NCBI GenBank assembly: GCA_964571855.1
Contig: CAZNDO010000016.1
Span: 4,601 to 68,600 of the forward strand
Source of the DNA: an uncultured Gemmatimonadota bacterium
GTDB taxonomy: Bacteria > ARS69
DNA length: 64,000 bases
Reading direction: 5' to 3'
In this document: positions 13,388 to 26,716 of the stretch, in pieces
How positions within the stretch are numbered: the stretch's first letter is position 1
Layout of the letters: each line of letters opens with the position of its first letter
The notes under the pieces: model-generated
The model's input: only the letters and a program-made list of their open reading frames with translations
Databases searched by the model: none
Told to the model about the DNA's origin: nothing
Program-made: the position numbers and the translations under genes

Positions 13388-15733
<2,346 letters not shown>

Positions 15734-15839
15734 CGCGCGCGCCGCGCCCGGAACGCGGAAGGGGTCCCGCCGCGGCGGGACCCCTTCGCGTTTCTCCGGA
15801 GCTTGCGCGGGACCGCACCCGCTCGCGGCGCCGGAACGG

Positions 15840-16571
15840 CTAGCGGTAGAGCGCCTTGACCGCGCCCCACGTGTTCTGCTCGACCGAGACGGCGCAGGAC
15901 ACGTCCGCATCGATCAGCAGCTGCGCGTCGCACACGCCGTCGTTGAAGGAGGAGCCGGGGCACAGCGGAGCGGACGTCGTGCCGTAGTCGAAGCTGTGGT
16001 TCGCGCGATCGATCGGGTAGCAGGTGCCGCAGGCCGGGGCCTCCGCACCCACGCCCGCCGGGTGGTCGGACGCCACCGCGGCCGGGTTCGACGCGCCCGC
16101 ACCGAACGTGACCGCCACGGCGAACGTGCGGTCGGGGACCGGGATGCCGCCGAAGTCGGTGCTGTTCCAGCCCGTCACCGGCAGGAACGCCTGCGAGGCG
16201 ATCGCCGCGCCGGTGGGGCACTGCGACGCGTCCGCGTCGAACACGTCGATCGTGCCGGTGAAGGAGTAGCCGGACGGCGCGCCGGTGTAGAAGTAGGACC
16301 ACACCGCGCCCACGCCGGTGGTGTAGCCGATCGTGCAGCAGCTGGTGAACGAGACGCCGAACTGCGCGCTGGGCGCGAACCCGCTCCAGATCCAGATCCA
16401 GCCGGTGCAGATGTTGTAGTACTGCAGTGTGCACGAGGACGAGCCGCGCCAGATGTCGGCGCGGTCCGTGTCGGAGAGTCTCTGGCTCGACTTCTCGAGC
16501 GCGAACGCGGGTGACGCGAGCAGCGTGGCGACGAACGTCGCCGCGAGGAGAATTCGAAGCGAAGACTTCAT
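15840..16571 (-). CDS. Secreted cysteine-rich hypothetical protein (243 aa, 12 Cys).
   Basis: GGAGG RBS, then the ATG. Signal peptide MKSSLRILLAATFVATLLASPAFA. Mature region has Cys pairs plus WIWIW, and ends ...AVKALYR. The upstream part of track ORF 15840..17240 is discarded. Confidence 0.55.
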   Translation of the reverse strand: MKSSLRILLAATFVATLLASPAFALEKSSQRLSDTDRADIWRGSSSCTLQYYNICTGWIWIWSGFAPSAQFGVSFTSCCTIGYTTGVGAVWSYFYTGAPSGYSFTGTIDVFDADASQCPTGAAIASQAFLPVTGWNSTDFGGIPVPDRTFAVAVTFGAGASNPAAVASDHPAGVGAEAPACGTCYPIDRANHSFDYGTTSAPLCPGSSFNDGVCDAQLLIDADVSCAVSVEQNTWGAVKALYR

Positions 16572-17049
16572 GACCGAACCTCCATGTCCGGAGCGGGAAG
16601 GTCCGGCGGGTCCGGCCGCCCTGGAGGCGGAGCGCGGGCACGCGCGGAGCGGTTCCTTCCTCATCGACCGAATCTCGCACCGGCTTGACGATTCCGGAAG
16701 GGCCGGGGGACGACAAATGTGCAAGAAGCGCGAAATCAAGCGGTTGGCCGGGGCGGCGGCGGGCCCCGAGGGACCGGGAACGGTGCAACCGCTTCGCGGG
16801 GGGCGTTCGGGGGCGGCCAGGCCGGAGGGCAATGCCCCCCGGTTGGTTGCCGGCGAGCTTCCGACGACTCGCGAACCGCGCGACGCGGTTCCGCCCGGTG
16901 GGGCGGTTTCGCGCGCGGCTCGACGCTTCGCGAGTTCACCGCGCGCACGCGCGGCGCCGTTCGTGCGACACGCGCGGCGCGAGTGCATCGCCGGCGTGGT
17001 GCGCACACACCGGCGCACGCCGCGGTCGCTTGACGCTTCGGCATCCGTT

Positions 17050-17079
17050 TCCCTATCATGGGTTCGTCGGCGTGAGCCG
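17050..17079 (+). promoter_or_regulatory. Sigma-70-like promoter candidate: TTGACG, an 18-nt spacer, then TATCAT.
   Basis: Both hexamers are close to consensus and sit in a locally lower-GC gene-free stretch. A second GCTTGACG(A/C)TTC copy lies about 345 nt upstream, near 16683. Confidence 0.3.
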
Positions 17080-17086
17080 ACGACGG

Positions 17087-17312
17087 GAATCGGGCCCTGC
17101 AGTGCACGACGTGGGTCGCGATAAAATTGAACCGAATGACTCGCCCAAGGGAGCTCTACATCCGGTTGGGACGTCCACGGCCTTCGCGGCATGAGGACTG
17201 AACGGACCGTGCGAGCACCCACTTGGAGTCCACGGGTCAAGCGTCGCGGCTCCGGACGTCACGGCGGGGCACCGATCCCGAAAGGGCGCGCTCTGCGCGC
17301 CCTTTCTCCGTT
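17087..17312 (+). ncRNA. Candidate small RNA, or a structured leader of the downstream hydrolase (about 225 nt), bounded by the promoter above and a perfect palindromic terminator.
   Basis: Locally reduced GC (gggtcgcgataaaattgaaccgaatgactcgcc). No credible ORF. It ends in the hairpin AAAGGGCGCGC-tct-GCGCGCCCTTT, followed by tctccgtt. Confidence 0.25.
17281..17305 (+). terminator. Perfect 11-bp palindromic hairpin with a 3-nt loop, followed by a T-containing tail.
   Basis: AAAGGGCGCGC tct GCGCGCCCTTT ctccgttcc. It sits 15 nt upstream of the preferred hydrolase start. Confidence 0.45.
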
Positions 17313-17321
17313 CCGGGCGTC

Positions 17322-18101
17322 GTGCTGAACGCGGGCGCGCACGCGCGAGTCGCCGCATGGCGCGAGGCGGAGGCCCGGGACGGCGTGCCCGAGACGGTGC
17401 GATCGTTCGTGCGCGATGCGGCGTCGCCGCGGGGCAGCGCGCTCCTCTTGCACGGCGCCGGCGGCTCGCCCGCGGACTTCCACTTCCTGGCCACGGATCT
17501 CGCCCGGCACGGCATCTCGTCCGTGTGTCCGCTGCTTCCCGGGCACGGGCGGGGGGACGCGGGCCTCGCCGCGCTCCGCTTCGACCCGCTCGCGCGTCGC
17601 GCCCTCGAGGCGTACGACGCGCTCGCGGCGGCCGACCCCGCGCCCAAGCCGTATCTCGTGGGGCAGTCCGTGGGCGCGGTGCTCGGCGCGCACGTCGCCG
17701 CGGAGCGGGCGCCCGCCGGTCTCGTCGCGCTGGCCCCCGCGCTGCGGCCCTACGTGCTGCGCCGCCTGGGCATGCTGCTGCTGGGGTTCCTCGTCCGGCC
17801 GCGCGTCGCCCTGCACACGCTGCGCTGGCAGACCGACGTGCGCCGCGGCATCCGCGCCACCGCGGCTCGCCTCGGCGAGGTGCGTTGCCCCCTGCTCGTT
17901 CTCCACTCGCGCGACGACGACAGCGTCTCGGCGCGCGGGGCGCGCGAACTCCTGGAGGCCGCGGCGTCGGAGCGCAAGGAACTGCGGTGGCTGGACGGGC
18001 AGGGACACGTGCTGTCCACCGCGCCGGACCGGGAGCGGGTGTTCGGACCCGTGCGCGAGTTCCTCGCCGCGTCTACTGAGGCAGGTCGAAGCGGAACGTA
18101 G
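17322..18101 (+). CDS. Alpha/beta hydrolase (esterase/lipase-type serine hydrolase).
   Basis: Motifs LLLHGAGGSPADF and the nucleophile elbow GQSVG. C-terminal LVLHSRDDDSV and GQGHV (Asp/His). The start is uncertain (GTG at 17322 or 17385). The track start at 17223 would include the hairpin. Confidence 0.7.
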   Translation: MLNAGAHARVAAWREAEARDGVPETVRSFVRDAASPRGSALLLHGAGGSPADFHFLATDLARHGISSVCPLLPGHGRGDAGLAALRFDPLARRALEAYDALAAADPAPKPYLVGQSVGAVLGAHVAAERAPAGLVALAPALRPYVLRRLGMLLLGFLVRPRVALHTLRWQTDVRRGIRATAARLGEVRCPLLVLHSRDDDSVSARGARELLEAAASERKELRWLDGQGHVLSTAPDRERVFGPVREFLAASTEAGRSGT

Positions 18102-18846
18102 GATCGACCTCGCGCAGGCGTGTCACCGCCGCCTCGAGGCGGGCGCGCGCCGCCGCCGACGGCTCGTGATGCCAGGACCAGTAGGCGTCCAGGAAGTCGT
18201 CGCGCGCGGTTGCCGCCGCATCCGCGGGAGCGCCGTCGGGCGCGGCGGCCGCATCCTCGGGAGCGACCCCGGCCAGGGCGGCGAAGCTCCCGTCCCGAAG
18301 GCGCTCGTACAGATGGAAGTACTCCCCGCGCATGTGGAACAGGACGTCCACCCAGCGCTCGAAGTCCTCCGAGAGCAGCTGCAGGATGCGGGCGAACACG
18401 CGCGAACCGGCCGGTGCGCGCTCCTGGAACAACGCGGCCCAGCGGTAGTACTCTTTGCCGCGCCCGATCCGGTCCCGGGCACCCGCGTCGAAGTCGCGGC
18501 GACCTTCCCGCGCCACGTACGGCGTGTCCACGAACAGGCCGGTGGAGACGAGCAGGTGATCCGCGCTCGCACGGTACACGCGGCACTTCTCGCGCGGGTC
18601 CCGCACGTCTTGGACCCGGCGGAACACGTCCACGCCGCCCCCGGTCGGGGCGGCGGTGAATCCGGGGGAGCGCACCAGTCCGGCGAGCAGCTCCACGAGG
18701 TAGACGTTCACGTCCTCGTCGTACCGGCCGGTGTTCGACTCGAACCCGCAGTCGATCCGGGACCGGAGCAGCGAGTCCAGCACGAAGTACGTCGTGCGTT
18801 CGCGGGGCTCGCCCGGACGCGAGAGGTCGAAGTACGGGTGGTCCAT
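18073..18846 (-). CDS. Hypothetical protein (257 aa). Its 3' end overlaps the convergent hydrolase by 29 nt.
   Basis: GGGAGG RBS 7 nt before the ATG of MDHPYFDLS... Coding-like composition. No family recognised. Confidence 0.5.
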   Translation of the reverse strand: MDHPYFDLSRPGEPRERTTYFVLDSLLRSRIDCGFESNTGRYDEDVNVYLVELLAGLVRSPGFTAAPTGGGVDVFRRVQDVRDPREKCRVYRASADHLLVSTGLFVDTPYVAREGRRDFDAGARDRIGRGKEYYRWAALFQERAPAGSRVFARILQLLSEDFERWVDVLFHMRGEYFHLYERLRDGSFAALAGVAPEDAAAAPDGAPADAAATARDDFLDAYWSWHHEPSAAARARLEAAVTRLREVDPTFRFDLPQ

Positions 18847-19052
18847 CGCCATCCCTCCCGTGCTCACCGCGCGAACAGCACTGCAAGGTCGGTGCCAGAC
18901 CGTCCGGAGCGCGGGGATTGCGAATCCTGCCCCGGATCAACCAAGAATCGGCCTTCCGGTTCCCCGGACGCCGGGCCCGCAAGGGCCCCCCGGCGGGAAA
19001 CGACCGGCCGGGTGTGGCGTTCTGCACGGGCGCGCGCCTGCGGGAGCGTTTC

Positions 19053-19892
19053 GTGACGGAGTTCACGAGCGGCCCGGGGGCGGTGCGCATCGGCTTCGCG
19101 CAGACCCGGCCGGTCTTCGGGCAGCGGGCGGCGAACCTCGAGGCGGCGGCTCGCCTCGTGGACGCGGCCGTCGCGTTCGACGTCCTCGTGCTTCCGGAGC
19201 TCTTCTCCACGGGGTACCTGTTCCTGTCCCGCGAGGAGGTGGGCGCGGCGGGCGAGGACACGGGCGGGCCCACGGTGACCTTCCTGCGCGACACGGCGCG
19301 GCGGCGCGGCGCCTGGCTCTGCGGGGGTTTCGCGGAACGGGCGGGCCGGGCGCTCTACAACGCGGCCGCCCTGGCCGGCCCCGGCGGCGAGCTGCACGTC
19401 TACCGGAAGGTGCATCTCTTCGATCGCGAGACGGAGGTGTTCGATCCGGGCGACCGGCCGTTCCACGCGATCCCCGTGCGCGCCGGCGGCGTGGACTTCC
19501 GCGCGGGGATGATGATCTGCTTCGACTGGCTCTTCCCCGAGGCCGCGCGCTGTCTCGCGCTCGACGGCGCGGACGTCCTCCTGCACCCGTCCAATCTGGT
19601 GCTGCCGTTCTGCCAGGACGCGATGTCCACGCGCTGCCTGGAGAACCGCGTGTTCGCCGTGACCGCGAACCGCAGCGGCGAGGACGTGCGCGGCGCCGAG
19701 CGCCTGGCATTCACCGGCTCCAGCCAGATCACCGGTCCGCGCGGCGACATCCTCGTGCGCGCGGCCAGCGCCGGCGAGTGCGTGGAGGTCGTGACGATCG
19801 ACCCGCTGCGCGCGCGCGACAAGCGGGTCACCGCGCGCAACGACCTGCTCGGGAGCCGGCGTCCCGACGTGTACGGGGCGCTCGCGGAGTAG
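19053..19892 (+). CDS. Carbon-nitrogen hydrolase family protein (nitrilase/amidase superfamily).
   Basis: The catalytic triad context: E in VLVLPELFSTGY, K in HVYRKVHLFD, and C in MMICFDWLFPE. GTG start at 19053. The track start at 18918 adds an Arg/Pro-rich head. Confidence 0.75.
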   Translation: MTEFTSGPGAVRIGFAQTRPVFGQRAANLEAAARLVDAAVAFDVLVLPELFSTGYLFLSREEVGAAGEDTGGPTVTFLRDTARRRGAWLCGGFAERAGRALYNAAALAGPGGELHVYRKVHLFDRETEVFDPGDRPFHAIPVRAGGVDFRAGMMICFDWLFPEAARCLALDGADVLLHPSNLVLPFCQDAMSTRCLENRVFAVTANRSGEDVRGAERLAFTGSSQITGPRGDILVRAASAGECVEVVTIDPLRARDKRVTARNDLLGSRRPDVYGALAE

Positions 19893-26642: not shown

Positions 26643-26716
26643 TAGCGGTGCAGGGATTCGAACCCCGGACACGCGGATTATGATTCCGCTGCTCTAACCA
26701 ACTGAGCTACACCGCC
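26643..26716 (-). tRNA. tRNA with anticodon CAU (elongator Met or lysidine-modified Ile2). It is not the initiator.
   Basis: Cloverleaf GGCGGTG-TA-GCTC-AGTTGGTTA-GAGC-A-GCGGA-aTCATAa-TCCGC-GTGTC-CGGGG-TTCGAAT-CCCTG-CACCGCTA. CCA is not encoded. It lacks the three G-C pairs of the initiator anticodon stem. It lies about 140 nt from the tilS start. Confidence 0.8.

Follow-up and report, generated by a model that had tools for sequence, protein, structure and literature searches.

6S RNA (SsrS) has been described in nearly all bacteria, with a canonical structure and a promoter and terminator of its own (PMC8414754). It mimics the promoter DNA of an open complex, binds the housekeeping holoenzyme and is released via a pRNA copied from its bubble (PMC3299989; PMC8414754). 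In E. coli, the ygfA gene is co-transcribed with 6S RNA, and the ssrS-ygfA arrangement is conserved in gamma-proteobacteria (PMC2848244). Elsewhere, 6S RNAs are made as precursors with 5' leaders, the removal of which affects stability and not function, and some of them bear terminator hairpins; in B. subtilis, 6S-1 carries a short 5' leader (11 nt) that is dispensable for function and modulates stability, and 6S-2 carries a putative terminator hairpin (PMC10578484). Given that 6S RNA is reported from nearly all bacteria, its occurrence is to be expected in the lineage considered here as well, a set of MAGs labelled Gemmatimonadota or Candidatus Eiseniibacteriota, and our literature search found no paper that pairs 6S RNA with Gemmatimonadetes or Eisenbacteria.

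We analysed a window (the whole stretch of DNA, 64 kb in length) with a GC content of 73.7%, in which a gap of 750 nt (16572-17321) lies between a divergent secreted-protein gene and an alpha/beta-hydrolase gene. A preliminary description of this DNA had called the gap gene-free, in agreement with the absence of any credible ORF in it, and had pointed to a lower-GC stretch, which is borne out by a GC content of 0.59-0.68 over ~17050-17250 vs 0.72-0.80 on either side. It had also proposed an independent small RNA running from a promoter to a hairpin, a proposal that was right in outline and placed the boundaries well. On the strength of sequence and structure comparison, the gene-free stretch very probably holds an unannotated gene for 6S RNA, ssrS. 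An Rfam scan in E-value mode, carried out with cmscan as the preliminary description had suggested, placed a match to RF00013 (6S/SsrS) at 17091-17274 on the forward strand, 184 nt long and running through the full model (1-187 of 187) with a score of 42.4 bits (E=6.8e-7 in a 1.3-kb scan; E=3.3e-5 across the whole 64-kb window). The alignment includes the bubble-flanking motifs of the family, UGAACCGA and GCACCCAC...GGGUCAA. Because the score lies 4 bits under the RF00013 gathering score of 46.4 bits, which is a curated operational threshold and not a biological property, the window copy is not reported by a default, gathering-mode Rfam scan and is overlooked by routine annotation. The whole-window scan in E-value mode returned this match and one tRNA as its RNA matches and nothing else, and no second 6S copy or other ncRNA besides the tRNA was found in the 64-kb window by clade-profile nhmmer and whole-window Rfam. 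The tRNA gene (26643-26716, reverse strand) is the only Rfam match above its gathering score in the whole window. The features of the locus are collected in the table.

Table. Features of the predicted ssrS locus and its neighbouring genes, in window coordinates
Feature	Position	Strand	Basis or remarks
Divergent secreted-protein gene, 243 aa	15840-16571	-	ATG at 16571
-35 hexamer TTGACG	17030-17035	+	Consensus scan; invariant in 19 of 19 full-length orthologues
-10 hexamer TATCAT	17054-17059	+	Consensus scan; 18-nt spacer from -35
6-bp hairpin GUCGGC-GUGA-GCCGAC	17066-17081	+	Seen in the fold; helix 1 of the 19-orthologue alignment
6S rod, probable mature RNA of ~195 nt	17085-17279	+	Rfam match, fold, stem extension and covariation
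Central bubble, 5' strand GAAUGACUCGCCCAA	17134-17148	+	Projection of Rfam pairs (border pairs 17133/17234 and 17149/17220)
Central bubble, 3' strand ACUUGGAGUCCAC	17221-17233	+	Projection of Rfam pairs and RNAalifold consensus; follows GCACCC of 17215-17220
Perfect 12-bp GC-rich hairpin, loop TCT/UCU	17280-17306	+	Directly abuts the 6S rod; helix 7
Alpha/beta-hydrolase gene, 259 aa	17322-18101	+	GTG start; exact match to database protein P0001; Pfam Hydrolase_4, Abhydrolase_6

To place the window copy among its relatives, orthologous loci were reached via homologues of the downstream hydrolase, which were traced to their contigs. The contig of the window was itself present, in identical form, in runs ERR2586215 and SRR34519444. 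All nine distinct syntenic loci obtained in related MAGs of the lineage carry an RF00013 match at the same place, with scores of 66.3, 61.5, 58.2, 52.1, 51.3, 49.1, 47.4, 47.1 and 37.0 bits, so that eight of them pass the 46.4-bit gathering score and one (L004, 37.0 bits) does not. Two DNA-pattern scans built on the invariant stretch GAACGGNNCGTGCGNGCACCC gave additional copies from genomes and metagenomes. One of these scans, on genome contigs, returned 31 loci, mostly chance matches in GC-rich genomes, eight of which were matched by clade-profile nhmmer, four of these being new sequences. The 6S sequence of L044, from a MAG labelled uncultured Gemmatimonadota, is nearly identical to that of the window, and L043, from a Candidatus Eiseniibacteriota MAG, has the same sequence as L009. 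A metagenome contig, L046, holds at 65-392 the 3' half of the 6S unit only (profile 111-253) together with the hairpin, and has unrelated sequence where the promoter and 5' half would be expected; either the copy has been rearranged or pseudogenised, or the contig is a chimera of the assembly.

The promoter-like TTGACG-N18-TATCAT noticed in the preliminary description is present at 17030-17059, where it matches 10 of 12 consensus positions, and it is the sole sigma-70-like site within 16400-17700 (dinucleotide shuffles average 0.0). The -10 hexamer reads TATCAT in 16 of the 19 orthologues and TATGAT in the other three, and the spacer between the hexamers measures 18 nt in 17 of them and 17 nt in two, while the spacer bases and the promoter flanks are unconserved. 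Such near-invariance indicates that a canonical -35/-10 promoter is recognised by the housekeeping sigma factor in these uncultured bacteria. From the spacing to the -10 hexamer, the +1 position is predicted to be G17066, 7 nt downstream. The conservation check in related genomes that had been proposed for this locus shows the promoter and the 3' hairpin to be kept at every orthologous locus, which argues that both putative ssrS signals exceed chance.

Folding of 17062-17316 gave a 5' hairpin, a long rod and a 3' hairpin (z = -5.85 vs shuffles). Beyond the ends of the model match, the closing stem of the window copy is lengthened by GGGA/UCCC and AUCGG/CCGAU, so that it reaches 17085 on one side and 17279 on the other, and a closing stem exceeding the Rfam model by 2-9 bp is found in all 19 orthologues, with differing sequences (AUCGG/CCGAU, GAAG/CUUC, AGAGU/ACUCU). 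Both the model match of 184 nt and the rod of ~195 nt with its extended stem agree with the size of the 6S class (~180-200 nt). The central bubble sets 15 nt opposite 13 nt and is bordered by the helices UUGAACC/GGGUCAA and GGGAGC/GCACCC, of which the GCACCC strand (17215-17220) is invariant in all orthologues and is followed by a nearly invariant A. The single-sequence MFE structure pairs part of this bubble, as is frequently the case.

The comparative evidence for this structure comes from 19 orthologous units, each beginning at the predicted start and running to the hairpin, for which RNAalifold recovered the 6S architecture together with both flanking hairpins. The structure derived from the clade has 95.5% of cells paired vs 90.5% in column shuffles, with none of the 500 shuffles as high as the real alignment; only 36-44% are paired when the partners are slid by 1-3 columns. 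Compensatory changes, with both sides of a pair altered, occur in 21 pairs vs 11.1 expected (0 of 500 shuffles reach 21). Both flanking hairpins (helix 1 in the leader, helix 7 at the 3' end) contribute such pairs, as do helices 2 and 3 of the closing stem and helix 6 of the terminal stem. At the borders of the bubble, helices 4 and 5 vary so little that they are uninformative on covariation, for or against. Because the clade structure was derived from the same sequences on which it was evaluated, the pairs of the Rfam model were also projected on the alignment: this external structure gave 78% paired cells vs 33-44% for slid partners, with 13 compensatory pairs, counts to which the truncated L046 adds some noise because this sequence, although excluded from the structure alignment, is still a row in the alignment used for the projection.

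Two hairpins flank the rod. The stem of the 5' hairpin, which can be extended to 17064-17083 in the window, begins 6-7 nt past the -10 hexamer in the orthologues and follows the consensus GUCGG-loop-CCGAY with a variable loop (GUGA, GCAA, GAAA, UUUCG and others); 88.7% of its cells are paired, and two of its pairs show compensatory changes. By analogy with the leaders of other 6S RNAs, it is most likely a stabiliser of the 5' end or a processing element. The 3' hairpin is formed by the arms GAAAGGGCGCGC (17280-17291) and GCGCGCCCTTTC (17295-17306), reading GAAAGGGCGCGC-UCU-GCGCGCCCUUUC as RNA, with 95% of cells paired and compensatory changes in four pairs. The preliminary description had taken this element for a perfect 11-bp palindromic terminator. 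The hairpin is indeed perfect and its stem amounts to 12 bp, and it is followed by the T-poor tail TCCGTTCC with 4 T in 8 positions, giving a weak U-tail (CUUUCUCC). Because the intrinsic-terminator rule of the promoter/terminator scan yielded 0 sites, with the hairpin at 17280-17306 failing it on account of this tail, its role as a terminator is to be called putative. In the orthologues, the tail is a short interrupted U run with 2-5 T in the first 8 bases where it was located, the position being misplaced in L004 and L011 and the L052 sequence incomplete. The likely role of the 3' hairpin is to terminate transcription intrinsically, to stabilise the 3' end of the RNA, or both.

These results bear on several other explanations of the locus. 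That there is no functional element at all, and that a promoter-like site and a palindrome have come together by chance in a spacer or that a short protein-coding gene is present, could be argued from the abundance of spurious ORFs and palindromes in high-GC genomes, from the ORFs of 45 and 100 codons that overlap the region, and from a 53-aa gene called over the orthologous region of L011. However, the promoter, the hairpins and the rod are conserved in 19 orthologues within flanking spacer that is otherwise unalignable, compensatory changes affect 21 pairs, and no reading frame stays open across the orthologues, with indels breaking the frame (the length is not divisible by 3 in 75 of 76 pairwise indel runs). 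Conservation and covariation have thus effectively refuted both versions, and we regard their probability as negligible. An independent sRNA of another kind, either a base-pairing sRNA or another polymerase-binding RNA, would have to resemble 6S RNA by chance as a GC-rich rod. Long rods form readily from GC-rich sequence, and the window copy does score below the Rfam gathering score, but eight of the nine distinct orthologues score above this curated threshold, up to 66.3 bits, the match spans the whole model including the bubble-flanking motifs of the family, and the clade alignment agrees far better with the external 6S structure than with the slid controls. We therefore consider such an RNA very unlikely, and the RNA encoded here is, as far as can be judged from its sequence, a polymerase-binding regulator and not a generic sRNA.

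The remaining explanation takes the structured region for nothing more than a long leader at the 5' end of the hydrolase mRNA, in which the hairpin at 17280-17306 would act as a regulated attenuator, with no trans-acting RNA being made. It was raised in the preliminary description, and it draws on two properties of the locus: the hydrolase start lies 15 nt past the hairpin in the window, and 14-107 nt past it in relatives where the start is called, leaving no space for a separate promoter, and the weak U-tail means that termination may be partial. By contrast, the supposed leader forms a complete covarying 6S rod and matches the full-length 6S model in every orthologue, no cis-regulatory Rfam family was matched, none scoring better than E = 0.5 in the 1.3-kb scan, and an antiterminator alternative is impossible because a segment complementary to the hairpin arm is absent from 17060-17279. 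Furthermore, two loci (L019 and L039) keep the 6S unit with no hydrolase homologue in the 1.9-7.7 kb of downstream sequence examined, so that 6S RNA is not merely a leader of the hydrolase. Attenuation as the primary function is accordingly highly improbable; what stands of the claim is that expression of the hydrolase may depend on read-through from 6S.

A gene for 6S RNA thus stays the preferred reading, and the hydrolase has to be fitted to it. Given that there is no room for a sigma-70 promoter of its own, the hydrolase mRNA is most simply explained by read-through from the ssrS promoter, and this spacing suggests that the hydrolase is probably co-transcribed with 6S RNA by read-through of the 6S hairpin. 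The linkage of 6S RNA and hydrolase is present in 13 related loci (L003-L014, L032, L047, L051 and L054 are among the relatives with linkage), and the hydrolase stands this close behind the hairpin in nearly all relatives; in L047, the alignment of the hydrolase protein starts 13 nt past the 6S unit. A stronger proposal would be that 6S RNA and hydrolase form an obligatory dual-function operon, with the hydrolase expressed only via read-through of the weak-tailed hairpin, and with the 5' and 3' hairpins kept in a mature 6S variant of ~245 nt, whose stability they would set. We put this forward tentatively and rather doubt it. If true, it would add to ssrS-ygfA a second independent operon of 6S RNA and a protein gene, and would be a hint that 6S RNA is functionally coupled to an esterase.

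A working model can be drawn by homology with described 6S RNAs. The sigma-70-type promoter would start a primary transcript of ~245 nt (by its predicted ends) near G17066, composed of the short 5'-terminal hairpin, the ~195-nt rod (17085-17279) and the GC-rich hairpin (17280-17306), which would end or stabilise the transcript. The rod, with its long closing stem, UUGAACC/GGGUCAA helix, large central bubble and terminal stem-loop, would act as a mimic of an open promoter and, if it binds as its homologues do, would occupy the active-site cleft of the housekeeping RNA polymerase holoenzyme, whereby sigma-70-dependent transcription would be damped during nutrient-poor or slow-growth phases. Upon a rise in NTP, the polymerase would template a short pRNA on the 5' bubble strand, leading 6S RNA to refold and the enzyme to be released. 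In the cmscan alignment, the homologue of the E. coli U44 start is ~A17136, within UGAACCGAAU (E. coli numbering per PMC3299989). Synthesis of the pRNA is predicted to start at ~17133-17137, at the 5' edge of the bubble, and to read leftwards through UUGAACC (17127-17133), which would give a pRNA of roughly 5'-AUUCGGUUCAAUU-3', beginning about 5'-AUUCGGUUCAA.

Upstream of the predicted promoter, a block of ~50 nt (ATCG..AATCTCGCACCGGCTTGACGATTCCGGAAGG; window 16660-16712) is conserved in ~10 orthologous loci. The spacer around it, 165-458 nt long depending on the locus, cannot otherwise be aligned, and the block includes the second GCTTGACG copy. This copy corresponds to the repeated GCTTGACGxTTC element of the preliminary description, which is found as GCTTGACGATTC (16683-16694), with GCTTGACGCTTC (17028-17039) lying 345 nt downstream of it. 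The idea that the second GCTTGACG, at 16683, serves as a distal promoter was discarded, there being no -10 hexamer 16-18 nt further on in the consensus scan. A sigma-54 reading of the block (TGGCAC-N4-TTGA in relatives) was also rejected: its spacing is 1 nt short with GC replaced by GA, and the GG at -24 is unconserved, the window having CGCAC. The block may belong to the divergent secreted-protein gene, as its operator or promoter, or it may regulate ssrS from upstream.

The usual gene order around the locus is IMPDH, the 243-aa secreted protein on the opposite strand, a gap of ~580-950 nt, the hydrolase, a 255-aa gene, CN-hydrolase, diadenylate cyclase and a pterin-binding protein, with the exceptions that the upstream genes differ in L014 and that L007 and L014 are without the CN-hydrolase. 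The 243-aa protein has a signal-peptide-like N-terminus, is rich in Cys and Trp and gave no Pfam domain; it is conserved beside 6S in most relatives with 42-85% identity (lower in L032 and L054). In the conserved neighbourhood of the 6S gene, which covers 14261-19892 of the window and is shared by L003-L013, IMP dehydrogenase (guaB) lies two genes upstream of 6S, and the diadenylate cyclase and pterin-binding (DHPS-like) genes lie a few kb downstream of 6S in relatives. These purine and folate genes recall the folate-related ygfA partner of E. coli, which may be a coincidence. As this DNA is so rich in GC, the 6S gene is overlapped by spurious long ORFs, at 15840-17240 and 17056-17358 on the reverse strand of the window and at 2776-2937 on the reverse strand of L011, where the 53-aa ORF is called as a gene in the public annotation.

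Taken together, the window 6S RNA is an ordinary housekeeping RNA, a family member in a poorly studied uncultured lineage, and existing knowledge of 6S RNA is left unchanged by it. Its chief value is one of annotation, since the 6S RNA of this lineage lies at or slightly under the Rfam cut-off and is consequently overlooked in some genomes; the 19-sequence alignment could seed a clade-specific model of 6S RNA. In addition, the conserved tandem of 6S RNA and hydrolase, as a second example of a 6S-protein gene pair, could help to ask why such couplings arise.

Compared with 6S RNA of E. coli, the window RNA belongs to the same class of ~185-195 nt, with a rod built from a closing stem, a large central bubble and a terminal stem. 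Both have UGA(G/A)CCGA on the 5' side of the bubble and CACCC...GGUUCAA/GGGUCAA on its 3' side in the cmscan alignment, and both have a sigma-70-type promoter and a protein gene close behind on the same strand. By contrast, the window sequence is diverged (42.4 bits at a cut-off of 46.4), and its clade has a conserved hairpin at the predicted +1. While a hairpin abuts the 3' end of the window 6S RNA, the E. coli 3' end results from Rho-dependent termination within ygfA plus processing (PMC3299989), and the downstream gene encodes an alpha/beta hydrolase in the window and 5-formyl-THF cyclo-ligase in E. coli. The departures from the family model (lower sequence similarity, a closing stem reaching 2-9 bp beyond that of Rfam, the +1 hairpin, the abutting 3' hairpin and a different partner gene) are modest, and four features are specific to the clade, namely the 6-bp hairpin at the predicted +1, the longer closing stem, the weak-tailed hairpin abutting the rod, and the hydrolase 15 nt further on.

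The leader of B. subtilis 6S-1 and the hairpin of 6S-2 are parallels of the leader hairpin and the 3' hairpin of the window. However, ~19 nt precede the rod in the window, 16 of them in a covarying hairpin, whereas no conserved hairpin is described for the B. subtilis leader, and B. subtilis has both 6S-1 and 6S-2 where one 6S copy was detected within this 64-kb window. Relative to ssrS-ygfA, the tandem described here differs in its unrelated partner gene, in that co-transcription is deduced from spacing alone, and in having two relatives without the partner. Nevertheless, in gamma-proteobacteria and in the window alike, an RNA gene is followed in tandem by a protein gene on the same strand, the space between them being too short for an internal promoter, and the arrangement is conserved within the lineage.
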